This document shows, one piece after another, positions 25,432 through 49,935 of a stretch of DNA of 64,000 nucleotides. Under the pieces are notes generated by a model. The model saw only the letters and a program-made list of their open reading frames with translations. It made no database searches and was not told the DNA's origin. The position numbers and the translations under genes are program-made. Origin of the DNA: Candidatus Shapirobacteria bacterium. GTDB lineage: Bacteria > Patescibacteriota > Microgenomatia > UBA12405. The stretch's first letter is position 1. The number at the start of each line of letters is the position of its first letter. The stretch is from contig JAGOQF010000001.1 of assembly GCA_017991615.1 (NCBI GenBank), positions 53,019 to 117,018 on the forward strand, read 5' to 3'.

Positions 25432-26430
25432 TTATGAGGAATAGATGATACCGATGGAAAAAAGCAGGGTTAAAATAGATGATCCACCGACGGAAAGGAA
25501 TGGTAGAGGAATTCCGGTGATAGGAAGAATACCGATATTCATTCCGATATTAACAAAAACCTGCATCCAAATTTGAAGAGTAATGCCGAGAGTAAATAAA
25601 AATAGAACCCGGTTATTGCGAACCAGAAAGGCTTTGTCTAAAAGAGTTTTGATAAGAAAATAGTAGGCGGTTAAAATGATAAATATACCAACAAAACCAA
25701 GTTCTTCGGCAGTGGCAGCAAACATAAAATCAGTGTGTTTTTCGGGGAGGAACAAAAGTTGTCCTTGTGTCCCTTTTTTGTAACCTTTGCCAAGAAAGCC
25801 GCCAGAGCCAATGGCTATTTTTGACTGAATAACATTGTAACCTTTATCGAGTGGATCTGAGGCAGGATTGAGAAAAGTAACAATTCTTTCTTTTTGGTAA
25901 TCATGAAGAGCGAAGTTATAAATCATGGGCGAGATAACTAAAAAAATAGTGGTAATAACTAGAGAAATTTTAAGGAATTTTGGATTATAAATAATAATTG
26001 GAGCCATGAGAAATAAAACTGATAAAGCACTGCCAAGGTCAGGTTGGAGAGCGATTATGCCGACAGGGATAAGGTGAAGGAGAGGAAATTTGGTATTGCT
26101 TAAAAATAGTAATAACCAGGGTTTGACAATCTCTGAAGGTTGAATAGAAACGAAACCAAGATCAATCCAGCGACAGGAACCTCGAGTGATAGAATTTAGA
26201 ACGATAGGAAGTAAAAGCAGAGCGCAACTAGTAAAGAAGATTAGTCGTTTAGAGGAAGAAATTTGTTTAGGATTTATTTGACGACCGATAAAAAACAAGA
26301 TTAAACCGATAATCCAGGCGATAAGTTGTTTTTTGACTAAATTTGGTGCCAGAGAGCTGACCATAAGAATATTGATAGCAAATAAAAAAACTAGGCTGAT
26401 TAAAACTGGTAACCAAGGAGATTTAGACAT
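25432..26430 (-). CDS. SEDS family protein (RodA/FtsW-like peptidoglycan glycosyltransferase)
   Basis: KHTDFMFAATAEELGFVG and C-terminal GGSSILTLL, ten TM helices. Confidence 0.8.
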   Translation of the reverse strand: MSKSPWLPVLISLVFLFAINILMVSSLAPNLVKKQLIAWIIGLILFFIGRQINPKQISSSKRLIFFTSCALLLLPIVLNSITRGSCRWIDLGFVSIQPSEIVKPWLLLFLSNTKFPLLHLIPVGIIALQPDLGSALSVLFLMAPIIIYNPKFLKISLVITTIFLVISPMIYNFALHDYQKERIVTFLNPASDPLDKGYNVIQSKIAIGSGGFLGKGYKKGTQGQLLFLPEKHTDFMFAATAEELGFVGIFIILTAYYFLIKTLLDKAFLVRNNRVLFLFTLGITLQIWMQVFVNIGMNIGILPITGIPLPFLSVGGSSILTLLFSIGIIYSS

Positions 26431-30459: not shown

Positions 30460-31707
30460 TCAAGGCATTAGAGGTTCGATTAATTTTTTAATTTTTCCGA
30501 ATATAGTGCCGACTTGAATTTTTGGTCTTTTGACTGACGTGGCGGTTATTTTTTTATTTTCATTGATAAACATAAGCAAACCAATGGCGCTACTGTAAGC
30601 AGGATTGATAATGTCATCGATAATGCCACCAACTTTTGGTGGGCTGGCAATTCGTAAAGGTAGAGGAATAACCTTTTCACAGACTTCTTTGATATTGATG
30701 GTTTGAGCTCCGCCTCCGGTGAGAACAATTCCAGCGGGAATGGTTTGATGGAATCCACTTTCTTCTATTTTGTCGTAAATTAGGTGAAATAATTCTTCAA
30801 GCCGAGGATTGATAATGCCATTGATGGCGGTGCGGAGGGAAATTTTTCTTTTGTCATCGGCGGGAAGTCCAAAACTGGAAAGATCAACTTCATCTTCAAA
30901 TTTTTTGGAATCATTAACTTTATTAAGACGGAGTTTAATTTTTTCGGCATCTTCAAGAGAGAATCTGAGACCGATAGCTAGATCGTTGGTAACATTACTG
31001 CCACCGACAGGAATGACGGAGGAATAGACAGGGGAACCTTCATTAAAAATAGTAATGGTGGTAATACTGCCACCAATGTCGACAAGAGCAACCCCAAGTT
31101 CTTTTTCGGTTTCAGTGAGAGTAGATTTGGCGGTGGCCAGACCAGAGTAAACTAATTGATCAATTTTGATACCGATATCTTCAAGACATTTTTTGAGATT
31201 TTTGAGAGAAGGGGTAGAGGCGATAATAATGTGAGATTCGACTTCAAGGCGGACTCCATTCATACCAATAGGATCAACGACACCTTCTTGACCATCAACG
31301 GTGTAACGAATGGGGATAATATGAATAATTTCTTTGCCGTTGGGAATAGCAACAGCTTTGGCAGCTTCGATGACACGATCAATATCGGTGGCTTCAATTT
31401 CATTGTTGGGACTACTGATGGCCACTACTCCATGTGAGTTAATAGATTCGATATATGGGGCTGATAAACAGATGGAGGCTGAATTTATCTGAAAACCAGC
31501 CATTCTTTCGGCTGATTCTATACTTTGGACGATGGTCGAAGTAGCTTGTTCTAAGTTGATAATTTGGCCTTTACGAAAACCTAAAGACGGGATTGAGGAG
31601 ACGGCAATAATATTAAATTTATCTTCATTATCGGAGTATTGACCGATAATAGTGGTTATTTTTGAGGTACCAATATCGATACCGCTAATTATTTTTGAAT
31701 GTGACAT
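30460..31707 (-). CDS. ftsA: Cell division protein FtsA
   Basis: Actin-like ATPase; GIDIGTSKI, DIGGSITTITIF. Confidence 0.9.
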   Translation of the reverse strand: MSHSKIISGIDIGTSKITTIIGQYSDNEDKFNIIAVSSIPSLGFRKGQIINLEQATSTIVQSIESAERMAGFQINSASICLSAPYIESINSHGVVAISSPNNEIEATDIDRVIEAAKAVAIPNGKEIIHIIPIRYTVDGQEGVVDPIGMNGVRLEVESHIIIASTPSLKNLKKCLEDIGIKIDQLVYSGLATAKSTLTETEKELGVALVDIGGSITTITIFNEGSPVYSSVIPVGGSNVTNDLAIGLRFSLEDAEKIKLRLNKVNDSKKFEDEVDLSSFGLPADDKRKISLRTAINGIINPRLEELFHLIYDKIEESGFHQTIPAGIVLTGGGAQTINIKEVCEKVIPLPLRIASPPKVGGIIDDIINPAYSSAIGLLMFINENKKITATSVKRPKIQVGTIFGKIKKLIEPLMP

Positions 31708-32062
31708 ATGGTTTGACAGGGCTTAGGTCAACAAGCATTAATTGTTGTTGATTCATTTTAGCGGTTTTTAGTAATTCTTGCAAAGAAGAAATCTGCCAAA
31801 ATGGGTCTTTTTGGCTGGAGAGAATAACTCGAATGGGTTGAGAAGAAGATTGAACATAAAATTCAACTTGGTGATGAAAGTCTCTAACGTCAATAGATGA
31901 TGTTTCTAAATGACTTGTTTTTAGGGCTAGATTTAGTTTTTGATAAAAGTCACTTTGATTGGCGACAGGATTAAAGCTTTCTGGTGGGCGAATATTGGTG
32001 GTGACAAAAATAAAAAGGCTGACGAGAGAAAAAAGCAGAACAGTGATTTTAAATAATTTCAT
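31685..32062 (-). CDS. Short FtsQ/DivIB-like membrane-anchored protein
   Basis: TM helix plus ~95-aa domain, located between murG and ftsA where ftsQ normally sits. Confidence 0.4.
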   Translation of the reverse strand: MKLFKITVLLFSLVSLFIFVTTNIRPPESFNPVANQSDFYQKLNLALKTSHLETSSIDVRDFHHQVEFYVQSSSQPIRVILSSQKDPFWQISSLQELLKTAKMNQQQLMLVDLSPVKPYVTFKNN

Positions 32063-33137
32063 AAATTAATTTAAGAAGTTTTTGGTTGGGTTTAATTTTT
32101 GTTTTGACAATTTGGTTTGGAATTTGAGACAGTTGATTGATAGCTGATAATAGACTCTTTGGGGTAAGATCTTTTTGATTGATAATTATGGTTTGCTTAT
32201 TTAATTTTTTTTGAACCCAGAGAGCATTGAGAAGTTGTTCATCTTGTTGACTTTGAGGTAAGGGAATCAAAATTGATTTTTTAGAGAAAGCCACAATTTC
32301 TTGACTGGTGTTGGCGCCAGCACGACCAATAATGATATCGGCAAAATTTATAATCCAGGCAAAATCTTGGGTATCAAAGTAGTCGGAAGCAAAATAGTTA
32401 GATTTATTTATTTTTTTAAATAAAGGTAAATCTGATTTACCGGTTTGATGAATTATATTGTAATTATCAAGTTTTTTAATAAGAGATTTAATGCAGAGGT
32501 TAATACTATGAGAACCTTGATTGCCAGCGGTGATATAGATTAAAGGAAGGTGTTTTTTGAAATTTATTTTTTGGGGGCGTTGGGGGTGAGGTTGAAACAG
32601 TTGAGATCTAAGTAAATTGCCAGTGATGGCTATTTTTGATGAAGGTAATTGAGTCATTTGACGTTCGTTTTCAAAAGAGAGAGCGATTTTATCAACAAAA
32701 CGGCTGTTAATTTTAGTAGTTAAGCTGTTGGTTAGGGTTTGTTCGTGGGTAATGGTTTTGATATTTTTTAGACGGGCGTTAATAATGACGGGGACAGAAA
32801 CATAACCACCGAATGAAACTACAATTTGCGGTTTTATTTTTTTAATAAGACGATAGGATTGAAAAAAGCCATAAATGGTTTTTGGAATGCCAGCAAGAGT
32901 GTTAGGCCAATAGCGTCGGTCGAATTTACCGCAGTAAATTGGGTAAAATTTTATCCCTAGATTAGGAATGACTTTTGATTCAATTGAAGTATCGTTGATA
33001 TTGTTGGAATTGGAATGACGACCAAGATAATTAATTTGCCAGTTAGTTTTTGGATCTGACTGGAGTTGTCGGATTAGTTCGAGAGCGGGAGTGAGATGAG
33101 TGCCGGTGATGATAATGGTTTTTTTTGGTTTGGTCAT
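32049..33137 (-). CDS. murG: Undecaprenyldiphospho-muramoylpentapeptide beta-N-acetylglucosaminyltransferase
   Basis: GT28 fold. C-terminal IIGRAGANTSQEIVAF...IPLP matches MurG. dcw context. Confidence 0.75.
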   Translation of the reverse strand: MTKPKKTIIITGTHLTPALELIRQLQSDPKTNWQINYLGRHSNSNNINDTSIESKVIPNLGIKFYPIYCGKFDRRYWPNTLAGIPKTIYGFFQSYRLIKKIKPQIVVSFGGYVSVPVIINARLKNIKTITHEQTLTNSLTTKINSRFVDKIALSFENERQMTQLPSSKIAITGNLLRSQLFQPHPQRPQKINFKKHLPLIYITAGNQGSHSINLCIKSLIKKLDNYNIIHQTGKSDLPLFKKINKSNYFASDYFDTQDFAWIINFADIIIGRAGANTSQEIVAFSKKSILIPLPQSQQDEQLLNALWVQKKLNKQTIIINQKDLTPKSLLSAINQLSQIPNQIVKTKIKPNQKLLKLIYEII

Positions 33138-34236
33138 TATCAGAGTATAGCAGCAGTGAGTGGTTTTTTTCGACGTTACGAACTAGACCAATGGCAGTCA
33201 TCAGTGTTAAAAGAGAGGAGCCACCATAGGAGACAAAGGGTAAAGGTACACCAGTTAATGGGATAATGTTGGCAATGGCGGAGATATTTATTAATCCTTG
33301 ATATCCGATCCAACAAGCAATGCCGGCAACTAAAAGTGAGGAGAAAGTGTCCTGATGAACTAAAGAAGCCAGTTTAATAAGGTAAGTCAAAAGGAGAATA
33401 TAAATTAAGATAAGGGTGAAAGTACCTAAAAATCCGGTTTCTTCACCGATAATGGCTAGAATAGAATCGGTGGATATTTTGGGAAGAAAGCGGTATTTTT
33501 GGTCAGAGTTGGCAAAACCTTTACCAAAAAATCCGCCAGATGAAAGAGATAAGATGATTTGACTGTTATGGTAAGAGGTGGTTTCTAATTCTTGATCGGG
33601 ATTGAGAAAAGTCTGTAGTCGTGCCAGGCGATAAGGTGAATTGATGATTAGAATAAAAGAAAGACCAATAAGACCTAAACAAAGTAGAAATAGAGGAATA
33701 ACTTTGCCACCAGATAAATAAAAAATGGAAATGATGATGGCTGAAACTAGAATGGCAGTGCTAAGATTTGGTTGAATAATTATGAGGGTAAAAATTATAA
33801 AGAGATGGATAATGAGATTGGTAAAATTACGTTTTGATGGTTGGGTAAATAGGTAAGAAAAATAGAGAACTGAACTAAGTTTAAGTAATTCGGAAGGTTG
33901 GAAACTTAATGGGCCGAGATTGAGCCAGCGGCTGGCGCCAAGAGTTTGATGACTAAATCCTGGGATTAAAACTAGAATTAATCCTAAAATTGATAGAAAA
34001 TAGATGATTGGGGAAAGTTTTTTAATAGAATCGAGTTTAATTTTTGAGGCAATATAAAAGGCTACTAAGCTGATAGATAACCAAAAAAATTGTTTTCTGA
34101 GGAAATAGAATTTGTCACCAGTAGTGATGTTGGCTTCAGTGAGGGAAGAAATAGAAATAAAAATAATACCGGTGATGACGAGAAAAAAAACTAGAGGTAG
34201 AAGTGGAGATTTAGTTAGTTTCATGGAGCAGGTCAA
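33043..34236 (-). CDS. ftsW: SEDS protein FtsW
   Basis: FGKGFANSDQKYRFLPKISTDSILAIIGEETGFLG; dcw context next to murG. Confidence 0.8.
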   Translation of the reverse strand: MTCSMKLTKSPLLPLVFFLVITGIIFISISSLTEANITTGDKFYFLRKQFFWLSISLVAFYIASKIKLDSIKKLSPIIYFLSILGLILVLIPGFSHQTLGASRWLNLGPLSFQPSELLKLSSVLYFSYLFTQPSKRNFTNLIIHLFIIFTLIIIQPNLSTAILVSAIIISIFYLSGGKVIPLFLLCLGLIGLSFILIINSPYRLARLQTFLNPDQELETTSYHNSQIILSLSSGGFFGKGFANSDQKYRFLPKISTDSILAIIGEETGFLGTFTLILIYILLLTYLIKLASLVHQDTFSSLLVAGIACWIGYQGLINISAIANIIPLTGVPLPFVSYGGSSLLTLMTAIGLVRNVEKNHSLLLYSDNDQTKKNHYHHRHSSHSRSRTNPTTPVRSKN

Positions 34237-35386
34237 TAATATGAGGAGGAATAGTCACTGGATTGGTAGATTGACTGAAGGCAACAAAGTCGTTGTATTT
34301 TTTAATGGTTTGATTACTTTTATTTTTTAAGGTAATTTCGGAACCGATAATGTCAGTTTGGTTAATTAACTGTTGATGTTGATTAATATCAATATGAGGA
34401 TTTAGATTGGTAAATTCGGCAAGATGGAACAAAAATAAGGGGTTGAGAGAGTGATTAATTTCGATACGAGTATAAAAAGCAAAGGAGGCAGTCAGTCGTG
34501 GGTTACATTCCAGTAGATAAACTGAATTTTGATTGACAAAAAAGTCTAAACCAAAAAAGCCGCGGTAGTTTAATGATTTTATAAGTTGACTAAATTCTTG
34601 GGTGATTTTAATAACTTGCTGATTAATATTTTGGGGAGCCATAGATGGCCATTGACGACCAACGGTAGTAAAGGGATTTGGGGTTAAAGTTTTAAGACCG
34701 GTGTATTGTAGGGCAGGTGGGCTTTGGATAAGTCCTGATGAAGTTAGACAACAATTGTTAATGAGTGAATAACCTTGTAAGAGAGGTGAAAATTTGACAG
34801 TAGTTTCGGAAGGAATTTTATCAGAAACATCGTGCCAATTTTCGGCTAAATGAGTGCTGTTGCCTGCCCAACCAAAATGGGTTTGGATGACTAATTTAGA
34901 ATCTAGTTTTTGTTGATATTTAGTAAAATTTGATTGATTAAATTTATCAATAAAACCTTTGATTATAGGCAGGTTATTTTTTTGGCAAAAGTTAAAAAAT
35001 TCATTTTTATTTTCAAGAAAACGATTGAGTTGATGGGAAACAGCGGCACAAATCCAATTATGTTGACGGCAGATAATTTCGATTTTTGCTGAAGGTTTAA
35101 AAGGAATAATAACTGGAGTTTTTTTGCCGGCAGTGGAATTGATATAGTTGATAACTTGGGGCGAAGATAGTAGTCGACCGGTATTTTTTTGAGCTAGGGA
35201 AATATTTTTTTCTTCAAGACAAAAATAAGGAATTTGTTGTTGTCTAAGTGAAGTAAAAATGGGACTGCTAAAAGCGTAAATGAGGTGAAAATTTTTCAGT
35301 TGAGGTAATTGGATGTCCAGGAAGTTGTCAACAACTAAAAAATAAAAAATATAGTTTGACTGATTAAGAATTTCAAATAAATCCAT
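34211..35386 (-). CDS. ATP-grasp family ligase (divergent: Ddl-like / carboxylate-amine ligase)
   Basis: C-terminal RGFFGLDFFVNQNSVYLLECNPRLTAS matches the ATP-grasp motif (D..F....G..YLLE.N..P..T). Confidence 0.6.
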   Translation of the reverse strand: MDLFEILNQSNYIFYFLVVDNFLDIQLPQLKNFHLIYAFSSPIFTSLRQQQIPYFCLEEKNISLAQKNTGRLLSSPQVINYINSTAGKKTPVIIPFKPSAKIEIICRQHNWICAAVSHQLNRFLENKNEFFNFCQKNNLPIIKGFIDKFNQSNFTKYQQKLDSKLVIQTHFGWAGNSTHLAENWHDVSDKIPSETTVKFSPLLQGYSLINNCCLTSSGLIQSPPALQYTGLKTLTPNPFTTVGRQWPSMAPQNINQQVIKITQEFSQLIKSLNYRGFFGLDFFVNQNSVYLLECNPRLTASFAFYTRIEINHSLNPLFLFHLAEFTNLNPHIDINQHQQLINQTDIIGSEITLKNKSNQTIKKYNDFVAFSQSTNPVTIPPHIIDLLHETN

Positions 35387-35388
35387 AG

Positions 35389-36210
35389 TTATCTTTTGGC
35401 TCCAGTTAAAAGGATAACTGGGAAGTCTCCAACAGAAAAATTATTCTGGAGAGCTTTTTTATAGGCGGCAAAGGCGAGAGCTCCCTCAAGAGAGGTAGTA
35501 ATTCCAGAACGGCAAAAATAGTCATCGGCAGAAATTATGGCTTTGTTTTGGATAGTAAAGGAGTGGCCGTTAAATTTTTTGATAGTTTGAATAATTTGAT
35601 TTTTATGGGGTAAAAACTTGGCGGATAAAGCATCGGTGATAAGTCTGGTTTCGGGGGTAAAATTGGTATCAAAAATACGGCTGATAGGTGAATTAGCAAC
35701 TGATTGACAACCAAAAAGATGGACATAGGGTGGCAGTTTTTGGGAAATTCCCAAAAGGGTGGTGCCGCTGCCGATAGGGACAAAAAGACTGCTAATTTGA
35801 GGTAATTGCTTGGTAAGCTCAATAGCTATTTGTTGGTAACCGATTTGAGCTATTGGATCGGTGGATTGTCTAAGGAGATAACTGGAGTTATTTTTAGAGA
35901 ACTTAACAGCATCACTGATGGGTTGAGGGGAAATAATAATTTCGACTTCGTATTTTTTGAGAAGATTGAGTTTATTAGGGTTTATTTTTGGTGATAAGAA
36001 GATAATTAGTTTGATCTGGTGTTGGCGACAAAAATGAGCTGCAGAAATAGCGGCGTTGCCAGTGCTAGAGATAACGGCTTGCTGATAGCCTTGTTTTTTG
36101 AGATTTTTGATTTGGAGAGGAATAGCTCTGTCTTTGGCAGAACCGGTTAAATTTTGGTCTTCGCGTTTGAGGTAGAGATTATCTAGTTTGACTAAGGGAG
36201 TATTTGCCAT
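35389..36210 (-). CDS. Fold-type II PLP-dependent enzyme (cysteine synthase / threonine synthase / SbnA-like)
   Basis: PLP-lysine motif KREDQNLTGSAKDR, glycine loop GSGTTLLG. Start set at MANTPLV. Confidence 0.7.
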   Translation of the reverse strand: MANTPLVKLDNLYLKREDQNLTGSAKDRAIPLQIKNLKKQGYQQAVISSTGNAAISAAHFCRQHQIKLIIFLSPKINPNKLNLLKKYEVEIIISPQPISDAVKFSKNNSSYLLRQSTDPIAQIGYQQIAIELTKQLPQISSLFVPIGSGTTLLGISQKLPPYVHLFGCQSVANSPISRIFDTNFTPETRLITDALSAKFLPHKNQIIQTIKKFNGHSFTIQNKAIISADDYFCRSGITTSLEGALAFAAYKKALQNNFSVGDFPVILLTGAKR

Positions 36211-36243
36211 ATAATGTTGCCTAGACTTTATTATATATTTTTT

Positions 36244-36414
36244 ATGTTTATGACACAAATGAATAAAATTATTTGTCCTGATTGTGAGGCAGAAATTAAA
36301 CAACCGGAGAGGTTGATGATTGGTGATATTTTGGAATGTAGTGAGTGTGGCACTGAAGTGGAAATATTATCTTTAGAACCGCTTCAATATAGAGAATTAA
36401 TTGAGGAGAAGTAA
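36244..36414 (+). CDS. LysW-like zinc-ribbon protein (amino-group carrier protein homolog)
   Basis: CPDCEAEIKQPERLMIGDILECSECGTEVEILSLEPLQ matches the LysW pattern CP.CG.E......G..V.C..CG.E.EV..L.PL, but the C-terminus ends EEK rather than EDWGE. Confidence 0.55.
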   Translation: MFMTQMNKIICPDCEAEIKQPERLMIGDILECSECGTEVEILSLEPLQYRELIEEK

Positions 36415-36966
36415 ACGATAGATTCCTTGATTGTCGAAAGTGGGGTCGGTGATGTCAAACTGACCGTAATGAACTCCCCTACCCCAAAAGGAACTGTCAA
36501 CATAACTGATGTTTTTGCCGGTTTTTTCGATGATAAATAAGAGATGACGGCCGTTTTTTTGACGGACAAGGTCGCCGGTTTGGATTTGGTTGTAATCTGT
36601 AATTTTTATAGATAAAGGGGCGGAGGTAAGCATATCAGCTGAAGTTCGTCGGGGGTTAAGATTGATTTTTTTACCTAAAATATGGCCATAGAATATGAGT
36701 AATTGGCTGGCTAGTCCGGAACAGTCAATACCAATTTTGTGTTTTTTTTGAAATTGATAAAGTTGTTTTGGGGTTAGTTTTTTTAAATTTAAGTTTTGTG
36801 AGGCGGCTATTTTTTTGGTTTCTTTTTTGATGTCTTTCCAGTGACCTTTGCCGCCAAGGACTCGTTCTTTGATAATTTTGCCGTTGCGGATGATGTTGGT
36901 CATATAAGGTAGGCCAATATAATTATCAATTTCTTGTTTTAGTTTTTTTAGTTTAGGCCCAACCAT
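36397..36966 (-). CDS. NlpC/P60 family cysteine peptidase (gamma-glutamyl / cell-wall peptidase-like)
   Basis: Catalytic Cys motif IGIDCSGLASQLL with downstream His (GRHLLFI). Confidence 0.6.
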   Translation of the reverse strand: MVGPKLKKLKQEIDNYIGLPYMTNIIRNGKIIKERVLGGKGHWKDIKKETKKIAASQNLNLKKLTPKQLYQFQKKHKIGIDCSGLASQLLIFYGHILGKKINLNPRRTSADMLTSAPLSIKITDYNQIQTGDLVRQKNGRHLLFIIEKTGKNISYVDSSFWGRGVHYGQFDITDPTFDNQGIYRLLLLN

Positions 36967-37982
36967 AGTCCAAAAATAGCGAGAATAATTCCGGCTAACC
37001 AGGCTCGGGTAACAATTTTAGGTTCTTCCCAACCCATACTTTGGAGAGTTAGATGGATTGGGGCGGCGGGAAAGATTTTCTTTTTAAAATATTTTTTACT
37101 AATCATTTGGGCAGCACTACTAATTCCTTCAATAATAAAGGGAGAACCAACAATAATTAAAGGAACTATTTTGCCAAGCATGAGGGCAATAACAGCAAAG
37201 GTGGCTCCAAAGGAAAGAGCACCGACATCACCTAGCCAAATTCTGGCTGGATAAACATTGAAGTAAAGAAAAGCGATAAGAGAGCCGATCCAGAGGGTGA
37301 GAAAAATAGAAATAGGAGTATCCATGGAAGTGTTAGATAAAATCCAGAAAGCAAATAAGGCAATCATTAATAAGCCGCAAGAAAGGCCATCAAGACCATC
37401 GGTAATATTAAAGAAATTAGCAAAACCAGTAATAATAATAGTAGAGATGGGGATAAAAAACCAATTTAACCTGATGGCACCAATAATAGGGATGTAAATA
37501 AAATCAATTTTAAGTTGAAAGTATATTGCTAAAGAAATGATTAGTGATAGAAATATTTGGAGGAAAAATTTATGTTTCATTCTCAAACCAAAAAATCCGG
37601 TTTGTTTGAAACCAAAAAATTTATAAACGTCGTCGTATAGACCGAGTAATCCAAAGCTGATGAAGGTAAAAAATATAATTGAAACTTCACTGGCAATTTG
37701 GTAATTTGAGGAAATAAAAATTTTGGAAAATTTAATGATGGGAAATAGAACAAAAAAGAGAGTGGTAACGGTGACGATGATTAAGACTCCCCCACCGACG
37801 GGAGTGCCTGTTTTACTATTATGAAACTTGTCAAAAATTGGAGTTTTTTTGTTAAGAAAATCGGTAGTCTGTTGCTTTTGGCGTTGAAATTTGAGTTTGT
37901 AAAGAATGTTAATAAAAGGAATAACCAAAATACTGGTAATTAAAAAAGAAAACAACAGCAGTCCTAAGTATAAATGAATCAT
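36948..37982 (-). CDS. mraY: Phospho-N-acetylmuramoyl-pentapeptide transferase
   Basis: Polytopic; NVYPARIWLGDVGALSFGATFAVIAL. Confidence 0.85.
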   Translation of the reverse strand: MIHLYLGLLLFSFLITSILVIPFINILYKLKFQRQKQQTTDFLNKKTPIFDKFHNSKTGTPVGGGVLIIVTVTTLFFVLFPIIKFSKIFISSNYQIASEVSIIFFTFISFGLLGLYDDVYKFFGFKQTGFFGLRMKHKFFLQIFLSLIISLAIYFQLKIDFIYIPIIGAIRLNWFFIPISTIIITGFANFFNITDGLDGLSCGLLMIALFAFWILSNTSMDTPISIFLTLWIGSLIAFLYFNVYPARIWLGDVGALSFGATFAVIALMLGKIVPLIIVGSPFIIEGISSAAQMISKKYFKKKIFPAAPIHLTLQSMGWEEPKIVTRAWLAGIILAIFGLWLGLN

Positions 37983-37984
37983 AT

Positions 37985-39313
37985 TTAAGTTTTTATATAT
38001 TCTATGTTAGCACCCAAAGAGTAAAGTCTTTCAGCCAGTTTTTCGTAGCCACGTTCAATATATTCGACTCCATCAATAATGGAAGTGCCTTCGGCGGTAA
38101 GAGCGGCTAGAGTGGTTGAGGCGCCGGCGCGGAGATCATTGATAATAAAATTGGCTGGTTTTAATTTGGTGGGGCCATAAATTTTGACTCCGTGAAAATA
38201 TTCTGGCTTATCATTTTCAGGGTTAAATTGGTAATAAGTTTCGGGATTGTCAACTTTGGGATTAAAAAATTTGGCCTTAACACCCATTTTTTTAAGATTT
38301 TCGATATGTTGGAAACGGTATGGGTAAACTCTTTCGATAACGGTGCTACAACCGACAGTTTGAGTGAGGAGAACCGAAAATATGGCTTGCCAATCGGTCA
38401 TAAATCCGGGTTCTGGTCCAGTTTCGATATTGATATTTTTTAAAGGTTTAATCCAGGAGATAGTAATTTCATCGCGACCAGGAATAATTTTGGCACCCAT
38501 AGTTTCAATAGTATTTAAAAATGTTTGAACAATTTCTGGATTGCTACGAAGAATATTGATTGAGCCTTTGGTAGCCAAGGCAGCACAGGCAAAAGTAACA
38601 ATTTCGTTTCTGTCGGCAATAATTTGATGGTTGGTGCCCTTAAGTTGTCGGACACCGTTGATAACAATTCTTTTGGGATCCTTGAGGTCGCGGTGGATAT
38701 TGGCACCCATATTGTTAAGCATCAATATAAGATCATCAATTTCGGGTTCTTGAGCTGAATTATCAAGAATAGTTTCACCGTGAGCAAAAGCGGCGGTCAT
38801 AATGACGGTTTCGGTAACAGTGTGACTGGGTTTGTTAAAAACATAATGAACAGCTTTGATTTTGTCGGTATTAAAAGTGATATTGGTATCAGTAACTTCG
38901 GTTTTTATACCCATTTTGTTGAAACAATCAAAAAGACGATCCAGAGGTCTGGCGCCAAGTTTGTCACCTCCCGGAGTAGGCACAATAGCTTGACCGGTTC
39001 TAACTAAAAGTGGGGCAGAAAACATAAATGAGGTTCGGGATTTTTCGCCGGTGCCAGCAGGAACAATTGAACTGGTGATTTTGGGAGTAGTGATTTCCAA
39101 ACAGTGTTCGCCATAATAATTAATAGTCGAACCAATACTTTTAGCAATACTTTCGGTTATTTTTATGTCAGAAATTTTAGGAACATTAGTCAGTTGAGTT
39201 GTTTGAGGACTAAGGATGGAGGCAATAATTTGTTTATAACTAGCGTTTTTGGCACCGCGAATAGAAACTTCGCCGTTTAGTTCTTTACCACCAGTAACTA
39301 TATATCTAGACAT
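37985..39313 (-). CDS. murA: UDP-N-acetylglucosamine 1-carboxyvinyltransferase
   Basis: GEVSIRGAKNASYK N-terminal signature, ~440 aa EPT fold. Confidence 0.8.
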   Translation of the reverse strand: MSRYIVTGGKELNGEVSIRGAKNASYKQIIASILSPQTTQLTNVPKISDIKITESIAKSIGSTINYYGEHCLEITTPKITSSIVPAGTGEKSRTSFMFSAPLLVRTGQAIVPTPGGDKLGARPLDRLFDCFNKMGIKTEVTDTNITFNTDKIKAVHYVFNKPSHTVTETVIMTAAFAHGETILDNSAQEPEIDDLILMLNNMGANIHRDLKDPKRIVINGVRQLKGTNHQIIADRNEIVTFACAALATKGSINILRSNPEIVQTFLNTIETMGAKIIPGRDEITISWIKPLKNINIETGPEPGFMTDWQAIFSVLLTQTVGCSTVIERVYPYRFQHIENLKKMGVKAKFFNPKVDNPETYYQFNPENDKPEYFHGVKIYGPTKLKPANFIINDLRAGASTTLAALTAEGTSIIDGVEYIERGYEKLAERLYSLGANIEYIKT

Positions 39314-39316
39314 ATT

Positions 39317-40714
39317 TTATTTAAATAAATTAATAATTGATTTAAAGATTCGGTTGCCTTCAAGTCCCCCAGAACTCATGTAGATTAAAATATCATTTGA
39401 CGTTAGGCTATGTTTATAATACTGTATAATTTGGGTTTTAAGTGGAAGATAGATTAGTTTTGGACCGAGACAGTCACGAAAATCTTTAGCAGTATTTCTA
39501 TTTTTTTTATCGATATTGCGGTTAAATTTGAGTTGAGTTAGAACCACTTCGGTGGCTAAATCAAAAGCATGTTTGAGTTCATTAAGACTGCTTTTGTATT
39601 GACAAAAAGAGGCGTGAGCTTGGTAGAGAACTTTTATTTTCCTTTTGGGATAATGTTGTCTAATGGCTTCTAAGGTTGATTTGATACGGTTGGCTGATTG
39701 GGCAAAATCATCAAAAAAGAGAATATTTTTAAGTTTGGCGATTAATTCGAGGCGACGTTTAATTCCACGATAAGAGAAAATAAATTTGGAGATAGTTTTA
39801 GAACTAACATTAAGGTAGTCACTGAGAGCAACAGCGGCTAAAATATTTTCAAAATTAAACTGACCAATAAGGGTAGTATTGACTTTAATAATACCAGATG
39901 GGGTACGGATAATGAGGGTGGTGAAATTTTTTTGAGGGATTATTTTTTCTAAAAAATAATCTGATTTGGGAGTGTTGTAAGTGATGATTTTGGCCGGTGA
40001 GTAATGACTAAGTTTTGAGGCAGATTGACTTTGTTGGTTGATTAACAAGACTCCGTTTGAGGGTAGATTTTGGACAAGTTTTTTGTAGGCTTGAAAATTT
40101 GATGAGGCGGAGGAGTAGGAATCTTTGTGTTCCCAGTCAGCGCTGGTAATAAGGAGATATTTGACCGGATAGTAAAGAAATTTGGCATGTTTGTCTAGTC
40201 CGTGGATAGATTCGTCGCCTTCAACTATTGACCAAGTAGATGTTGATATTTTAATGGGATTAAATTTATTTTTAGGACTACCACCAAACATATAACTTGG
40301 TTTAAATTTGGTGTGACGAAAAATCCAGGCTAGAAGACTAGTGATAGTAGTTTTGCCAAAACTACCAGCGACAACAATAGAGTTGGATTTGACGATGTTT
40401 TTGGCGATATACTTAGTGGCGGATAGGTAGGGAATTTTTTGTTGTTTGATTTGTTTAAATTCTTCTTTGGTGTTTTCAAACAAATCATAAGATGAGCCGA
40501 TAATAGCTTGATCAATTTGATGATTAATGTCGGTAATGTTGATTTTTATGCCAGCTTTTTTGAGAGTAGTACTGATGGGAGGAAAAATTTTGGGTTGGTC
40601 GGAACCAGTGACTTTGGCACCGGCTTGTTTGAGAGCAATAGCAAGATTGGCAGTCATGGTGCCGGCAATTCCCAGAATGTGAATATGGAGATTAGATAAA
40701 GGTTGATTTGTCAT
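39317..40714 (-). CDS. murC: UDP-N-acetylmuramate--L-alanine ligase
   Basis: HIHILGIAGTMTANLAIALKQAGAKVTGSD (MurC N-domain) and P-loop GSFGKTTITSLL. Confidence 0.75.
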   Translation of the reverse strand: MTNQPLSNLHIHILGIAGTMTANLAIALKQAGAKVTGSDQPKIFPPISTTLKKAGIKINITDINHQIDQAIIGSSYDLFENTKEEFKQIKQQKIPYLSATKYIAKNIVKSNSIVVAGSFGKTTITSLLAWIFRHTKFKPSYMFGGSPKNKFNPIKISTSTWSIVEGDESIHGLDKHAKFLYYPVKYLLITSADWEHKDSYSSASSNFQAYKKLVQNLPSNGVLLINQQSQSASKLSHYSPAKIITYNTPKSDYFLEKIIPQKNFTTLIIRTPSGIIKVNTTLIGQFNFENILAAVALSDYLNVSSKTISKFIFSYRGIKRRLELIAKLKNILFFDDFAQSANRIKSTLEAIRQHYPKRKIKVLYQAHASFCQYKSSLNELKHAFDLATEVVLTQLKFNRNIDKKNRNTAKDFRDCLGPKLIYLPLKTQIIQYYKHSLTSNDILIYMSSGGLEGNRIFKSIINLFK

Positions 40715-41408
40715 ATTTTAACCATTGATGATTATAAAAGTGTTCAAATCCGGGCATATTTCTTTTGTAATAACCGGTTGATAAAGAGAATCGACCTAGA
40801 TAGCAATAATCTAAATTTAGGTCATAACTATCAATGATAGTCTGTAAAACCAATCTTATAGGGAGATTACCATGATTATAGTTAGGGTGATAAAAGACAT
40901 AAGCGATATGGCTGATTTGATCAGAAAAATAGCAAATTGAATAAGCGACGATGTTATTTTGCTCATCTTTCCATATATATAGATAATTAAAAATATGTTT
41001 ATTAAAAATGGTTTTAACAGAATTTATAGGAAAATCCCAACCCAATTGTTTAATCCAAGAAGAGATTTGTTTTTGGGTATCGGGAGTAAGTTTAAATTCA
41101 TTTAAAGAAATTTTTTGGTAAGTAAAATGCTGAGTTTTACTGAGAATGCGGCGGTTTTCGGAATTGAGTTGAAATGATTGTTTTAGGTTGGAGCGGCAAC
41201 TAGTGTCGGAATACCAAAAACCGGCTTGATTTCTTTGGGGTAGGAGCCCTTGGGAGTAATTAATTTCAGGAGATTGATTGTTTTTGAGATTATATTGAGG
41301 CATCAGCTTGGCGTAATTTAAAGGCAGTTCTGAAAGCTTCGGCTTCAGACCAAGGATATTCAGTATTGCCGTCAAGAATGGTAGTTTCATGACCTTTACC
41401 CATAGCAA
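40692..41408 (-). CDS. ATE/Bpt-like aminoacyl-tRNA--protein transferase homolog. Its real start may be an internal Met near 41303.
   Basis: C-terminal DYCYLGRFSLSTGYYKRNMPGFEHFYNHQWL resembles the ATE_C consensus (YLGY....YK..F.P.E....W). N-domain has a Cys-containing segment. ~238 aa fits Bpt. Confidence 0.45.
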   Translation of the reverse strand: MLWVKVMKLPFLTAILNILGLKPKLSELPLNYAKLMPQYNLKNNQSPEINYSQGLLPQRNQAGFWYSDTSCRSNLKQSFQLNSENRRILSKTQHFTYQKISLNEFKLTPDTQKQISSWIKQLGWDFPINSVKTIFNKHIFNYLYIWKDEQNNIVAYSICYFSDQISHIAYVFYHPNYNHGNLPIRLVLQTIIDSYDLNLDYCYLGRFSLSTGYYKRNMPGFEHFYNHQWLKYDKSTFI

Positions 41409-42675
41409 TGATAATATCTTTGGCTTGAGCTAAACTGACAGCTAAATTGAAAGCGTCTTGGCGATTAGGAATGTTGAAATAAATAAATTTATTTTTATTA
41501 TTTCTGATGGTTTTTTTAATTTCAGAGAGTGGTTGGTTATGATCAATTAAAATTGAATCATTGGAGATACCACTAATGATTTGTTGATTAATCTGGTTAA
41601 TATTTTCGTTGCGGGTATCATCGGCGGTAATAAAAGCGATGTCGGCTAGTTGAGAAACAATATTACCCATAATAGGACGTTTGGTTTGATCTCGGCCGCC
41701 AGTAGCACCGAAAATGGTTAAGATTCGGTTTTGTCCGATTTTACGGAGAGAAGAAAGGGTATTTTTGATGGCATTTGGAGTGTGAGCAAAATCAATTAGT
41801 GCTAGAATATCTAATTGATTGCTGACTTCTTCACGTCGACCTTTGGTATCAGGGAAGTTTTTGATAGTTTCTAGGGCATATTTAGGATTAATTTTGAGTT
41901 GTTCGATAACAGCGATGGCGGCTAGAATATTATAAGTCTGGTAGTAATAAGGACTATTAGTTTTTATTTTGAGATTATTAAGATTGAAGCTAAGTGAATT
42001 TTTATTTAATTTAATTTTTTTGGCCTGATAATCTGATGGTTGTTTAATACTGTAAGTTATTATTGATTTGCTAACCAAACTATTTTTAATAGTTTGATAA
42101 GAGTCGTCATCGCGATTGAGAATAGAGATCTTTGATTGGGAAAAGATGAGACTTTTGGTTTTAATATAACGATTCATATCATGGAAATAATCTAAGTGTT
42201 CGTGAGAAGTATTAGTGATAACAGAAACTTCAAAATTACAACCGTAGTAACGAAATTGGTCAAGAGCATGGGCAGTAACTTCACAGACAACATGAGTAAC
42301 GCCAGCATCAACCATTTTTTTGAAGATCTTTTGAATGACTGAGGGATCAGGACTGGTTATATGAAGACCGGTGTCAATTTCTTCATTGCCATATTTAGCA
42401 CCGATGGTGGTAATAACACCGGCATTAATGCCTGATTTTTTGAGGATTTCATAAAGTAGAATTGAAGTAGTGGTTTTGCCATCAGTGCCGGTAACGCCAA
42501 TTAAAGTTAGTTTTTTGGAAGGCCAATGATAGTAGTAATTGTAAAAAATACTTTTAGAAAGATGAAAGAGGCGGTTTTTGATTTTTTGCCACATTTTGAA
42601 TGATTTAATTATAACAAACCGTTGATTTTTGAGACCATTTTGAACCAAATTGGGGCGGCGGTGTTTGAACCCCAT
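41290..42675 (-). CDS. murE: Mur ligase, most likely UDP-MurNAc-tripeptide synthetase MurE (short N-domain)
   Basis: P-loop GVTGTDGKTTT, C-terminal GKGHE motif. Follows ftsI in the dcw order. Confidence 0.65.
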   Translation of the reverse strand: MGFKHRRPNLVQNGLKNQRFVIIKSFKMWQKIKNRLFHLSKSIFYNYYYHWPSKKLTLIGVTGTDGKTTTSILLYEILKKSGINAGVITTIGAKYGNEEIDTGLHITSPDPSVIQKIFKKMVDAGVTHVVCEVTAHALDQFRYYGCNFEVSVITNTSHEHLDYFHDMNRYIKTKSLIFSQSKISILNRDDDSYQTIKNSLVSKSIITYSIKQPSDYQAKKIKLNKNSLSFNLNNLKIKTNSPYYYQTYNILAAIAVIEQLKINPKYALETIKNFPDTKGRREEVSNQLDILALIDFAHTPNAIKNTLSSLRKIGQNRILTIFGATGGRDQTKRPIMGNIVSQLADIAFITADDTRNENINQINQQIISGISNDSILIDHNQPLSEIKKTIRNNKNKFIYFNIPNRQDAFNLAVSLAQAKDIIIAMGKGHETTILDGNTEYPWSEAEAFRTAFKLRQADASI

Positions 42676-44258
42676 GATGATGATTTAGGATTGTTGATGG
42701 TGACCATCATAGTAAATTTTGGTTGAGAACAAGGCCAAAATCCGATATAAGATCCGATAGTGGCTGAATCGGTATATCCGCCTTTAATGGCTACTTGGGC
42801 GGTACCGCTTTTAGCACAAACTTCAAGATTTTTAGGTTTAAAAATGGAGACGGCGCCGGTGTCAACGGCATATTTTAAGATAGATTTGATTTCAGAAACA
42901 GACTCGTGTTTAAAAACACGAGATTCTTTTTTACCCTTGACAGGGTAAGAGCGATTTAATTGGTCAGAAAAAGATTGAGCAACTTTAGGATTGACTAAAA
43001 TACCATCATTGGCAATGGTATTGAAAGCCTGAAGCATGCCGATTTGAGTGACAACAATCCCCTGCCCGAATGAAGCTGTGGCTAAATCAATTTCAGGCCA
43101 ATTGTTTTTGACAGCAGCTTTGACTTCGCCTTGAAGGTCAATACCGGTTTTTTGGTTTAAACCTAAACGTTGGTAGTATTTGAGGAAATTATTTAAACCT
43201 AATTCTCGGATAATATGGCTCATACCGATGTTATCGGAATTTTTGATAATATCTTTTAAGGTTGATTCAGGGTGAGTGGATTTATCCCAATTATTGATGG
43301 TGTACTGACCAATGGTTAATGGTTGAGAACATTGGTGACAAATATAGTCTGGGGTGATTGATTTTTGATCTAAGGCCATGGTAACAACTATGGGTTTAAA
43401 GATAGATCCAGGTTCAAATAGGTCAGATATGGCTGGGTTTCTGGAAGCGCTAGGAGTGGCAATGGTATCGGCGGTTTGACTGGTCATGGCTACGATTTGA
43501 CCGGTTTTGGTTTCCATAACGATGATTGAGCCAGAATCAGCTTGGTATTGACTGATACCGTGAGCTAATTCTGTTTCGGCTTGGTACTGAATATAGCGAT
43601 TGATAGAGGTGAGAATAGTGTGACCATCGATTGATGGGGAACTCCAACTTTTTTTAGTAAGGATAGTTTTACCGACAGCGTCTTGGGGTGACCAAGTAAA
43701 TCCGGTTCGGCCGGTGAGTTGTTTGTTGTAATAAGCTTCAAGACCACCATAGCCAGTTTGGTAACCGTAATGATCGTTGGCAACAAAGCCGAGCATGTCA
43801 GCAGCTAACTTGTTTTCAGGATAATATCGGGAACTATATTTTTTAAAAGTGAGTCCATTGATGTTTTGAAGTTGATCTTTTTCAGATTCAGAAAAATCAG
43901 TGGTAAGATCAAGCCATTTTTGGTTGGGATTAGTTTTGAAATTATTAAGGTGAGGATTTTGATTAATAAATTCGGGATGAACAGAATCAATTTTGTTTAA
44001 AATATCATCGATATTTTCAGTCATATTTGGCTTATATATAGAGAGTCGATAACTAGTTTGATTGAGAACCAGAGGGAAATTGTCAGAGGCCAAAATTTGG
44101 CCTCGAGAAGGGTTTTTGATTTCAAGTTTGTAAGTTTGACTAAGAGCTTTTTCTTTTAACTCTGGACTTTTGATGACTTGCCAATAAAAAAGTCTGCCAG
44201 TGACAGCTAGAAAAGAAAAGATAAATGAAAATAATAAAATGCGATAGCGATGGATCAT
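42609..44258 (-). CDS. ftsI: Penicillin-binding protein transpeptidase (FtsI / PBP3-like)
   Basis: N-terminal TM anchor, SxxK (GSIFKP), KSGTA motif. Confidence 0.85.
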   Translation of the reverse strand: MIHRYRILLFSFIFSFLAVTGRLFYWQVIKSPELKEKALSQTYKLEIKNPSRGQILASDNFPLVLNQTSYRLSIYKPNMTENIDDILNKIDSVHPEFINQNPHLNNFKTNPNQKWLDLTTDFSESEKDQLQNINGLTFKKYSSRYYPENKLAADMLGFVANDHYGYQTGYGGLEAYYNKQLTGRTGFTWSPQDAVGKTILTKKSWSSPSIDGHTILTSINRYIQYQAETELAHGISQYQADSGSIIVMETKTGQIVAMTSQTADTIATPSASRNPAISDLFEPGSIFKPIVVTMALDQKSITPDYICHQCSQPLTIGQYTINNWDKSTHPESTLKDIIKNSDNIGMSHIIRELGLNNFLKYYQRLGLNQKTGIDLQGEVKAAVKNNWPEIDLATASFGQGIVVTQIGMLQAFNTIANDGILVNPKVAQSFSDQLNRSYPVKGKKESRVFKHESVSEIKSILKYAVDTGAVSIFKPKNLEVCAKSGTAQVAIKGGYTDSATIGSYIGFWPCSQPKFTMMVTINNPKSSSWGSNTAAPIWFKMVSKINGLL

Positions 44259-44512
44259 TAAAAACTAATTTTAATAGATTTGGTAATTGGTTTGAGGTTG
44301 GCTGAAGGAGTGCTTTCAGTAAGAAATTTGATAGAAGTAAGATCGGCAACTTTTTTCCAGGCCGACTCAACTTCCAGTTGAAGTTGATCGGCTTCTTTTT
44401 GGTAAAGATCAAGTTGATTGTTTTGGGTAACGATACTGCTGGAATAAAAAAAAGAAAAAATAATTTGAATAAGGAGACTGATGATAATTATGCCGGTAAA
44501 TATTTTGGACAT
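44258..44512 (-). CDS. ftsL: FtsL-like small membrane protein
   Basis: 84 aa, N-terminal TM helix followed by a coiled-coil. Sits between rsmH and ftsI. Confidence 0.4.
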   Translation of the reverse strand: MSKIFTGIIIISLLIQIIFSFFYSSSIVTQNNQLDLYQKEADQLQLEVESAWKKVADLTSIKFLTESTPSANLKPITKSIKISF

Positions 44513-45387
44513 TAAACTATTTTATACGATCTAAGGATACTTGAGCGAGATAAAGGATTGAATTTGATTTCTGAAGGTGATGGTCTGATAAACTTTTGTT
44601 TTAAAACCAAGTCTTGGTGATGGTTTAAAAACTGTTTAACGAGACGATCTTCGCCAGAATGAAAAGTTATAATGGCAACGTGACCACCAGGTTTGACAAC
44701 TTCAAGACTTTGAGATAAAAGTTGGGATAAATTTTGAAATTCTTGATTGACAGCAATTCTTAGACTGAGAAAAATTTTAGTGGCGGGATCAATTTTGGTT
44801 TTGAGATGGCGTTCACGATAATATTCTCTAATGATGTTAGCTAGTCTTAGACTATCTTTAAAGGGAGATTTTTGTCTTTCTTTAATAATTTTTAAGGCAA
44901 TTGGTTTGCTGTAGAGCTCTTGACCGAGTTTGGAAAAAATCTCAAACAATTGTTCAAATGAATAAGTGTTGATAATTTCTTCGGCGGTTAGGGTTTGAGT
45001 TTTGGGGTTTAGTCGCATATCCAAAGATTGAGAGTCATTGAAAGAAAATCCTCGGTTTATGCCGGTTTGTTGGTTTTGGCTTAAACCAAGATCGGCAATA
45101 AGACCGTCAATTTTTGATTTTATTTTTTTGGAGACAACCGAACTTAAGTTGACAAAATTTTGATTGATAGGAAAAAATTTTTTTGATAGGTTGTGATCTT
45201 TGATGCGATTGATGGCAATGTTGAGATTGTCAGAATCGAGATCAAAACCGTAGACAATACCGCCTTTTTTGAGAATTTCTAGGGTATGACCGCCGTGACC
45301 GACAGTGGCATCGACATAAATATGATCAGGTTTGACAGCAAGAGCATCAATTGCCTCTGTTAGTAAGACAGGATGGTGAAAATTCAT
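44512..45387 (-). CDS. rsmH: 16S rRNA (cytosine1402-N4)-methyltransferase
   Basis: HHPVLLTEAIDAL...YVDATVGHGGH. Confidence 0.9.
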   Translation of the reverse strand: MNFHHPVLLTEAIDALAVKPDHIYVDATVGHGGHTLEILKKGGIVYGFDLDSDNLNIAINRIKDHNLSKKFFPINQNFVNLSSVVSKKIKSKIDGLIADLGLSQNQQTGINRGFSFNDSQSLDMRLNPKTQTLTAEEIINTYSFEQLFEIFSKLGQELYSKPIALKIIKERQKSPFKDSLRLANIIREYYRERHLKTKIDPATKIFLSLRIAVNQEFQNLSQLLSQSLEVVKPGGHVAIITFHSGEDRLVKQFLNHHQDLVLKQKFIRPSPSEIKFNPLSRSSILRSYKIV

Positions 45388-49907: not shown

Positions 49908-49935
49908 ATTACCAGTTTAGCAAAGATGTAACGAT

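Follow-up and report, generated by a model that had tools for sequence, protein, structure and literature searches.

How does a bacterium attach the first residues of its peptidoglycan stem peptide when its division and cell wall (dcw) gene cluster lacks the ligases expected to attach them? The question is raised by a dcw cluster in a 64-kb stretch of Candidatus Shapirobacteria DNA (the window; contig JAGOQF010000001.1 of assembly GCA_017991615.1). To our knowledge, the sequence MurC-MurD-MurE-MurF is regarded as universal in wall-bearing bacteria; it is also a drug-target pathway. An earlier note on this DNA had reported murD, murF and ddl absent from the cluster, and none of the three is found there, elsewhere in the window, or in the approximately 10 kb read on each side; nor do the scanned genes of these regions include any further Mur ligase, Ddl, MurB, Alr or MurI. 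Between ftsI and ftsQ, where canonical clusters hold murC, murD, murE and murF and often ddl or murB, the window has only a short murE and one other ligase gene. The latter had been called murC; since it is better regarded as Mpl-like, murC is missing from the cluster too, as is murB.

The cluster contains a module of six genes, encoding an ATE-like aminoacyl transferase, the Mpl-like ligase, and a four-member cassette: an NlpC/P60-like peptidase (p189), a LysW-like protein ending in E-E-K, a pyridoxal phosphate (PLP) enzyme and an ATP-grasp ligase. The evidence suggests, short of proof, an unusual mode of attachment for the first two residues of the wall peptide. A full-text literature search returned nothing on Mpl-like, LysW-like or ATE-like genes in dcw clusters of the candidate phyla radiation (CPR), nor on Mur ligases missing in Microgenomates.

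A conserved module at the murC and murI-murD positions

To place the cluster among its relatives, a species-representative genome collection (one genome per GTDB species) was scanned with the ATP-grasp protein, giving 119 matching stretches, and 80 loci were fetched; gene orders were counted over the fetched loci together with further related metagenome loci. Outgroup loci were fetched from metagenomes with short MurE proteins from outside the clade and then annotated. Genes were mapped across the fetched loci by local phmmer and called with Pfam and NCBIfam models. The loci compared number 162, of which 85 bear the cassette and 77 are free of it; each gene was sought within 10 kb. Across the loci that carry it, the ATP-grasp protein is 42-79% identical to the window copy.

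Pfam and NCBIfam models confirm the order from ftsI to ftsZ that had been read from the window, with two corrections: the supposed murC is Mpl-like, and the LysW-like gene runs antisense to the genes around it, being encoded on the plus strand. The coordinates once assigned to the whole cluster, 32049-44258, span only ftsI to murG. The order mraY-p189-lysW(antisense)-PLP-ATPgrasp-ftsW occurs in 69 of 69 loci having all six genes, and murE-ATE-"murC" is kept in 57 of the loci with all three (the ATE-like gene being present in 59 loci); across loci, the module is conserved as strictly as the core genes are. Proteins identical to those of the window occur in over 100 metagenome assemblies, of which many derive from anaerobic digesters, and the ATP-grasp protein carries the NCBI label "Candidatus Woesebacteria." The gene order is real and clade-wide in Shapirobacteria/Woesebacteria (Microgenomates, CPR), and no accident of a single genome.

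The Escherichia coli order, with which the cluster had been compared, proves a poor reference. Related CPR have ftsI-murE(short)-murC-murB-murA-(ddl/alr)-murF(short)-mraY-(murI)-murD-ftsW-murG-ftsQ-ftsA-ftsZ; in one such outgroup (L116), murC scores 395 bits, murD 403, murB 306 and murF 263, and in five (L116, L117, L128, L170 and L171) mraY is followed by (murI)-murD-ftsW. With canonical clusters of this kind (L116, L170 and L171), the window shares the frame mraW-ftsL-ftsI-murE...murA...mraY...ftsW-murG-ftsQ-like-ftsA-ftsZ and the short MurE, and the upstream synteny recO-proS-p231-mraW is common to the outgroups and the window clade. It differs in having the Mpl-like gene at the murC position, the four-gene cassette at the murI-murD position, and the ATE-like gene inserted after murE, ahead of the murC position; the murA-mraY interval has lost ddl and murF, and murB is gone from the other side of murA. 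The ATE-like gene consequently does not sit in the murF slot, as had been supposed, and one sister lineage (L168, below) has both it and murF. Of the two slots earlier assigned to the PLP/ATP-grasp cassette, that of murD stands, the cassette lying at the murI-murD position, and that of ddl falls, because ddl coexists with the cassette in L168.

The distribution of these genes is complementary. Within 10 kb, the 85 cassette-bearing loci include 62 with the Mpl-like gene and none with canonical MurC or MurD; among the 77 cassette-free loci, MurC is found in 34 and MurD in 9. In the 162 loci, the module and canonical murC and murD exclude each other.

Comparison of the dcw layout with close relatives, which the earlier note had recommended, was run and yields a series from outgroup through sister lineage to clade. 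The sister state is best seen in L168 (genome label Ca. Shapirobacteria CG09_land; L099 is of the same type), which reads mraZ-mraW-ftsI-murE-ATE-like-ligase-murB-murA-ddl-murF-mraY-p240-lysW(antisense, ...EEEK)-PLP-444-aa protein-ftsW-murG. Its p240, PLP enzyme and 444-aa protein are homologues of the window p189, PLP enzyme and ATP-grasp (41, 196 and 172 bits, respectively). L168 thus has a genuine ddl (TIGR01205, 322-342 bits), a genuine murF and murB beside a complete cassette and the ATE-like gene, and it follows from this coexistence that neither the ATE-like gene nor the cassette can stand in for ddl or murF. When they entered the cluster, it still held murB, ddl and murF, which were lost from it later in the window clade. 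In L168 and the in-clade genomes alike, the six genes are inherited as a unit.

Several relatives have rearrangements of their own. The murI-murD region of L170 (12291-15544) encodes a glutamate racemase and then a single 815-aa MurD-FtsW fusion (MurD-like_N, Mur_ligase_M/C, FTSW_RODA_SPOVE), and L171 is similar. Between murE and mraY, L100 (11621-15403) has three genes: a murF whose product is much extended at the N-terminus, one for an aminotransferase of DegT/PseC type, and one for a transferase resembling FemX. In L113 (6400-14054), two MurE-type genes (495 and 421 aa) and two NlpC/P60-like genes flank the ATE-like/Mpl-like pair, possibly a further intermediate layout.

The Mpl-like ligase and the short MurE

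Equivalog models place the ligase under both thresholds. On the MurC model TIGR01082 (cutoff 335.1 bits), the ligases of the window, L168 and L099 score 237.8, 238 and 269 bits, whereas MurC proteins of cassette-free CPR relatives pass with 395, 373 and 374. On the Mpl model TIGR01081, which was presumably built mostly from proteobacterial sequences, the window ligase scores 187.4 bits against a cutoff of 388.7. The margin of the murC over the mpl model is 144-197 bits in the MurC of cassette-free relatives and 44-51 in module-bearing ligases. Identity of the ligase to outgroup MurC is only 25-30%; between L168 and L170, the ligases are 30% identical, with 60% for MurE, 72% for MraY and 53% for both MurF and FtsI.

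Structural and tree comparisons point toward Mpl. The best PDB match of the window ligase is 3hn7, the Mpl of Psychrobacter arcticus (PMC3060825); for the L099 ligase, 3hn7 ties with MurC 9ir5 at 147 bits. The ligase is sister to Mpl in 93 of 100 bootstraps of a full-length neighbor-joining tree containing one Mpl, and in 95 of 100 when the N and M domains are used with two Mpl (PDB 3hn7 and 3eag); ligase and MurC group without Mpl in 0 of 100 bootstraps of these trees.

Sequence motifs are in keeping with this placement. Like Mpl, the window ligase has three Mur-ligase domains with a MurC/Mpl-type N-domain. Module-bearing ligases carry GSDxx[IV][YF]PPxS (IYPPMST in Mpl), DDFA as in Mpl in place of the DDYAHHP of MurC, and a C-terminal MS[SN]GG[LF]xG (MSNGGFEG in Mpl, MGAGD in MurC). 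A loop one residue longer (EPRSNTMK-type) stands in place of the MurC QPH-xYSR, with loss of R377 and R380 of MurC. In Haemophilus influenzae MurC, L-Ala is bound by Y346/H348 (DDYxHHP) and H376/R377/R380 (QPHRYxR) (PMC3060825); at these sites the window ligase reads DDFAQS and QAHASFCQYK, so that the MurC residues are not kept. The loop reads DPAATALK in L099 and DPSATGLK in L168, and outgroup MurC keeps DDYAHHP and QPH-TYSRTK. An insertion, AFFDKRSK, was considered as a further diagnostic of Mpl and dropped, as that site also holds an insertion in many CPR MurC. The ligase differs from Mpl in falling under the equivalog cutoff, in lacking the exact (S/T)AFFDKRSK motif, and in lying within the dcw cluster at the murC position, where it is apparently the main ligase rather than a recycling side-path. 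Judged by scores, trees and motifs, the "murC" of module-bearing lineages is not an orthologous MurC and is better described as Mpl-like.

The MurE of the window is short: its alignment to Thermotoga maritima MurE (4bub) begins at residue 93, the N-terminal domain being missing. The idea that this short form might be a special enzyme for free peptides was rejected. A search of 1.84 billion representatives found the P-loop within the first 60 residues in 76 of the 150 best 50%-cluster representatives, and the same domain is missing in MurE and MurF of the CPR neighborhood (L116:14930-16165; L099:15720-16919); the short form is widespread and occurs also beside canonical murF and murD (L116 and L170). 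A second peculiarity is confined to in-clade MurE, which reads DDTR (41600-41640, residues ~322-329) where relatives, including cassette-bearing ones, have EDPR and E. coli has DNPR. That the cassette makes the substrate of MurE, with covariation at the DNPR motif, is unsupported, as cassette-bearing sister lineages keep EDPR. The change to DDTR accordingly postdates acquisition of the module; it is seen in the same clade that has no ddl or murF in the cluster.

Peptide first, or genes elsewhere

The earlier note had left a choice between genes located elsewhere and non-canonical stem-peptide synthesis. Replacement of murF and ddl is unsupported, given L168; for a non-canonical course of the first two steps, there is positive evidence: the Mpl-like gene occupies the murC position and the cassette that of murI-murD, and cassette-bearing loci have no canonical MurC or MurD. 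Which genes these are, their synteny, their complementary distribution and the ligase's affinity to Mpl are shown. A possible explanation, which we advance tentatively, is that these two steps run peptide-first via the Mpl-like ligase, with murB, ddl and murF elsewhere in the genome. The six-gene module would have taken over the murC and murI-murD positions, and MurC and MurD would no longer add the first two stem residues singly. The accessory enzymes would produce or salvage a short peptide off the nucleotide, in the simplest case a dipeptide resembling L-Ala-D-Glu, and the Mpl-like ligase would join it in one step to UDP-MurNAc (N-acetylmuramic acid bound to UDP), after which the short MurE, MurF with Ddl, MraY and MurG would proceed as usual. 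Because murE is kept beside the Mpl-like gene, the ligase would more likely act on a dipeptide than on a tripeptide. This substrate, what the five accessory proteins do, and a genome-wide absence of murC and murD are inferred, as are the order of the module reactions and even the identity of the amino acids. The preferences of the parent families (ATE, NlpC/P60, ATP-grasp and LysW) fit a peptide-first route.

The ATE-like protein matches ATE_C at 21.9 bits (gathering score 25; E 3e-4). It has 535 homologues, many with a precomputed PF04377 match, and those that are source-named are Shapirobacteria. An AlphaFold 2 (AF2) model (pLDDT 89.8) has human ATE1 as its top Foldseek match (E 9e-8, TM 0.66), followed by yeast ATE1, the aminoacyl-phosphatidylglycerol synthase MprF, FemX and aminoacyl-tRNA-dependent peptide synthases, which supports a predicted tRNA-dependent aminoacyl transferase of GNAT-like fold. 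The acceptors of ATE enzymes are N-terminal Glu or Asp. Likeness to FemX/MurM and to ATE1/Bpt lies in the fold and, for FemX, in being encoded among genes for peptidoglycan precursors; the single domain of ATE/Bpt size differs from the double GNAT of FemX.

In the family of the 189-aa protein, 18 of 23 members match PF00877 (best E 1.8e-6; E 0.045 for the window member alone), and D81-C82-S83 and H141 are invariant. Judged by eye, no signal-like hydrophobic stretch is seen at the N-terminus. These features support a probable NlpC/P60-like cysteine peptidase of the cytoplasm. The NlpC/P60 family typically cuts gamma-D-Glu-diamino acid bonds, the recycling enzyme YkfC being an example.

The LysW-like protein is almost invariant and ends in E-E-K (rarely E-Q-K) in 70 of 70 loci, whereas genuine LysW ends in ...EDWGE, with the terminal Glu as the attachment site. 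LysW-type carriers hold an amino acid during its modification. With the LysW/LysX system of lysine and arginine biosynthesis in Thermus and archaea, the module shares a zinc ribbon of ~50 aa (PF21344), an acidic tail, and adjacency to an ATP-grasp ligase and to a hydrolase able in principle to release the product. It differs in the E-E-K tail, in an ATP-grasp protein that has no RimK match, in having no LysZ, LysY, LysJ or LysK in the cluster, and in partners, a PLP enzyme of beta-replacement type and an NlpC/P60-like peptidase, that belong to a cell-wall cluster.

The PLP enzyme carries S-A-K-D-R, the S-x-K-D-R motif of cysteine synthase, threonine synthase and SbnA; its nearest curated families are archaeal-type threonine synthase and SbnA, all far under their cutoffs. 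A racemase is disfavored by this motif and by best matches to threonine synthase and cysteine synthase. The ATP-grasp protein has 437 homologues; those among the 120 listed are all at least 50% identical, and the source-named ones are Shapirobacteria, Woesebacteria or Patescibacteria. Its AF2 model (pLDDT 94.7) has biotin carboxylase, PurK, PurT and Streptomyces ATP-grasp peptide ligases as neighbors (TM ~0.6), with no Ddl, LysX or RimK among the top 50. Identification as a divergent Ddl was rejected (18.8 bits against a cutoff of 310, and a genuine Ddl of 322 bits beside the homologous ATP-grasp in L168), as was identification as LysX, in view of those neighbors. ATP-grasp enzymes join a carboxylate to an amine.

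Several considerations weigh against the peptide-first proposal. The NCBIfam murC model still outscores the mpl model on the window ligase (238 against 187 bits), and the affinity to Mpl rests on two Mpl sequences and on distance trees with long branches. The PLP enzyme is of beta-replacement type and no obvious racemase, and the ATP-grasp protein is not LysX/RimK-like. Replacement of two or three genes by six is unparsimonious for a reduced genome. Proteobacteria have Mpl alongside MurC, where it serves in recycling (PMC3060825). The negatives cover the cluster, the window and approximately 10 kb on each side, and murC, murD and murI may lie elsewhere in the genome.

The last point leads to ordinary scattering, in which murC, murD, murI, murB, ddl and murF are intact elsewhere, the stem peptide is canonical and the module is an add-on. 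In that case, the Mpl-like ligase and the NlpC/P60-like peptidase could recycle or salvage murein peptides; the ATE-like enzyme could add a tRNA-dependent branch, as FemX does; and the PLP, ATP-grasp and LysW-like proteins could supply or attach a non-standard amino acid, in the manner of the D-aspartate ligase Asl and its racemase. CPR dcw clusters do vary: of 12 cassette-free relatives with mraY and ftsW both visible, 8 have no murD at the junction of these two genes, so murD often lies outside the cluster in this branch of the CPR, and several relatives have no murC, ddl or murB within 10 kb. The FemX-like gene of L100 shows that genes for stem-peptide branching do enter such clusters, and L168 keeps ddl and murF beside the module. 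We know of no substitute for murB, whose step is required after murA, so it must exist somewhere in the window clade although it is outside the cluster; murA itself is outside 10 in-clade clusters. Absence from the cluster is hence weak evidence of absence from the genome, and murB, ddl and murF of the window clade have most probably moved elsewhere. Because murD is off the junction so often, and because Mpl and MurC coexist in Proteobacteria, we regard scattering and the peptide-first proposal as about equally likely. What scattering leaves unexplained is the placement: the Mpl-like gene lies exactly at the murC position and never with canonical murC in 85 loci, and the cassette lies exactly at the murI-murD position. 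For genomes of ~1 Mb, moreover, it would be unusual if each of at least 119 species had retained a redundant branch for recycling.

Homology searching has little to say on the relocation of murF. The in-clade proteins lie on a long branch (MurE and its L099 counterpart share 45% identity), so an in-clade MurF would rank below the 120 matches listed for the sister-lineage MurF, a search that accordingly has no power on this point; the four matches that were looked up (L168-L171) all belong to sister or outgroup clusters.

A stronger version of the peptide-first proposal, which we consider unlikely, holds that there is no MurC, MurD or glutamate racemase at all and that the backbone of the stem peptide is begun on a protein carrier. 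On the E-E-K tail of the LysW-like protein, the ATP-grasp enzyme would tether an amino acid, Glu or Lys, which the PLP enzyme would modify; the ATE-like enzyme would add an N-terminal residue from aminoacyl-tRNA, the NlpC/P60-like peptidase would free the short peptide, and the Mpl-like ligase would couple it to UDP-MurNAc. If true, the main chain of a peptidoglycan stem peptide would for the first time be seen to arise by a route that depends on tRNA and a carrier protein. The module in the dcw cluster would otherwise count as a variant of the known dcw and peptidoglycan-precursor pathway; only a start on carrier protein and tRNA, a minority reading, would be categorically new.

Salvage of host peptides alone is improbable. 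Here, imported murein peptides would be trimmed by the NlpC/P60-like enzyme and re-attached by the Mpl-like ligase, leaving murC, murD and murI dispensable, while the LysW, PLP, ATP-grasp and ATE-like genes would have an unrelated task, e.g., concerning the amino acid at position 3. An Mpl-like ligase with a cytoplasmic NlpC/P60 enzyme is the hallmark pair of murein-peptide recycling (PMC3060825), and CPR are generally auxotrophic episymbionts (PMC11665869). The six genes are nevertheless inherited as one unit, the cluster is without a peptide transporter, and the retention of MurE means that the attached peptide is not a full tripeptide unless MurE is redundant; some Patescibacteria of anaerobic digesters, in addition, parasitize archaea, which have no murein (PMC10936435).

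A fully non-canonical stem peptide, with murD, murF and ddl absent genome-wide and replaced by the ATE-like enzyme and the PLP/ATP-grasp cassette, as implied by the slots assigned in the earlier note, would agree with their absence from the regions read and with the change from EDPR to DDTR in MurE, but is very improbable: L168 combines the ATE-like gene and cassette with genuine ddl and murF, the ATP-grasp protein has neither a Ddl signature nor a Ddl structural neighbor, the transpeptidase domain of FtsI is normal and needs a D-Ala-D-Ala-type donor, and a tRNA-dependent transferase cannot lengthen a peptide at its C-terminus.

Among known systems, pseudomurein synthesis in Methanobacteriales offers a conceptual likeness to the peptide-first proposal, the stem peptide being built off the sugar and attached later by means of Mur-type ligases and ATP-grasp enzymes. 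It differs in its components: the pMurC, pMurD and pMurE models give 50-77 bits against cutoffs of 550-610, and bacterial MurA, MurG, FtsW and FtsI are present. Should the peptide-first proposal be true, an Mpl-type ligase, a tRNA-dependent transferase and a LysW-like cassette would be the first case of non-orthologous proteins taking the place of MurC and MurD. Peptidoglycan synthesis would then be tied to amino-group carrier proteins, with a bearing on the source of D-glutamate in ultrasmall auxotrophic episymbionts. Even if the canonical genes lie elsewhere, more than 100 species have within their dcw cluster a six-gene module that is strictly conserved, and the "murC" family of this cluster is better called Mpl-like. 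Whichever reading holds, the question can be tested directly, thanks to the clear evolutionary series that leads from outgroup via sister lineage to clade.

Layout and surroundings of the cluster

The dcw region (GC ~36%) consists of tightly packed, co-directional minus-strand genes, with the plus-strand LysW-like gene as the sole exception (Table 1). For the two proteins assigned by position, weak matches in outgroups are available: DivIC at the FtsL position in L171, and FtsQ_DivIB_C at the ftsQ position in L170.

Table 1. Features of the dcw cluster, in positions of the window
Feature	Positions	Strand	Basis
rsmH/mraW, cluster start	44512-45387	-	PF01795, E 1e-77
84-aa protein, hydrophobic N-terminus, FtsL position	44258-44512	-	Position only; no Pfam match
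ftsI (class B penicillin-binding protein, PBP)	42609-44258	-	PBP_dimer and Transpeptidase domains
Short MurE	41290-42594	-	TIGR01085, 332.1 bits (cutoff 257.3)
ATE/Bpt-like aminoacyl-tRNA-dependent transferase (putative), 203 aa	40692-41303	-	Weak ATE_C match and Foldseek
Mpl-like UDP-MurNAc ligase (earlier "murC")	39317-40714	-	Scores, motifs, neighbor-joining trees
murA	37985-39313	-	TIGR01072, 401 bits (cutoff 393)
mraY	36948-37982	-	PF00953; TIGR00445, 167 bits
NlpC/P60-like cysteine peptidase (probable), 189 aa	36397-36966	-	PF00877 in family members
LysW-like zinc-ribbon protein, 50 aa	36262-36414	+	PF21344, 42.8 bits (cutoff 27)
Candidate sigma-70-like promoter upstream of LysW-like gene	36188-36215	+	TTGACT-16-TATAAT, 11/12 positions; consensus match only
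Fold-type II PLP enzyme, CysK/ThrC/SbnA type	35389-36210	-	PF00291, E 2e-42
Clade-specific ATP-grasp ligase	34211-35386	-	PF02655
ftsW	33043-34236	-	PF01098, E 1e-84
murG	32049-33137	-	GT28 N- and C-terminal domains
125-aa membrane protein, ftsQ position	31685-32062	-	Position only; no Pfam match
ftsA	30460-31707	-	FtsA and SHS2 domains
ftsZ	29295-30458	-	Tubulin and FtsZ_C domains

Directly beyond ftsZ, after ileS, lies a second gene of the SEDS (shape, elongation, division and sporulation) family, rodA-like (25432-26430), in a synteny found in many in-clade loci; neither mreB nor PBP2 is near it. Upstream of the dcw cluster, a surface-polysaccharide cluster (47979-62710) encodes DUF4012 and Bac_transf proteins, a sugar nucleotidyltransferase, approximately nine glycosyltransferases and a hexapeptide acyltransferase, and additional glycosyltransferases, a UDP-glucose dehydrogenase and an epimerase follow beyond the window end. 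The rest of the window and the approximately 10 kb on each side hold genes for DNA polymerase III alpha, Lgt, an acetate-kinase-like protein, uracil-DNA glycosylase (UDG), ribosomal proteins, ParB, a large glycosyltransferase cluster, S-adenosylmethionine (SAM) synthetase and others, together with an inserted mobile element.

The mobile element is a strain-variable insertion of 4.6 kb beside tRNA-Asp (11189-16216; GC 28-31%), with genes for a serine recombinase (11224-12714), a Rep-like protein (12715-13611), a helix-turn-helix (HTH) protein and a methyltransferase. It is flanked by a 335-bp direct repeat (11261-11595 = 15882-16216) and is missing from the contig of another strain (L087); the recombinase is on 6 contigs only, compared with 76-131 collection blocks per neighboring gene. 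Plus-strand GC skew is positive throughout 1-64000 (0.07-0.39) though nearly all genes are on the minus strand, so that the sense strands are A-rich, with C in marked excess over G.

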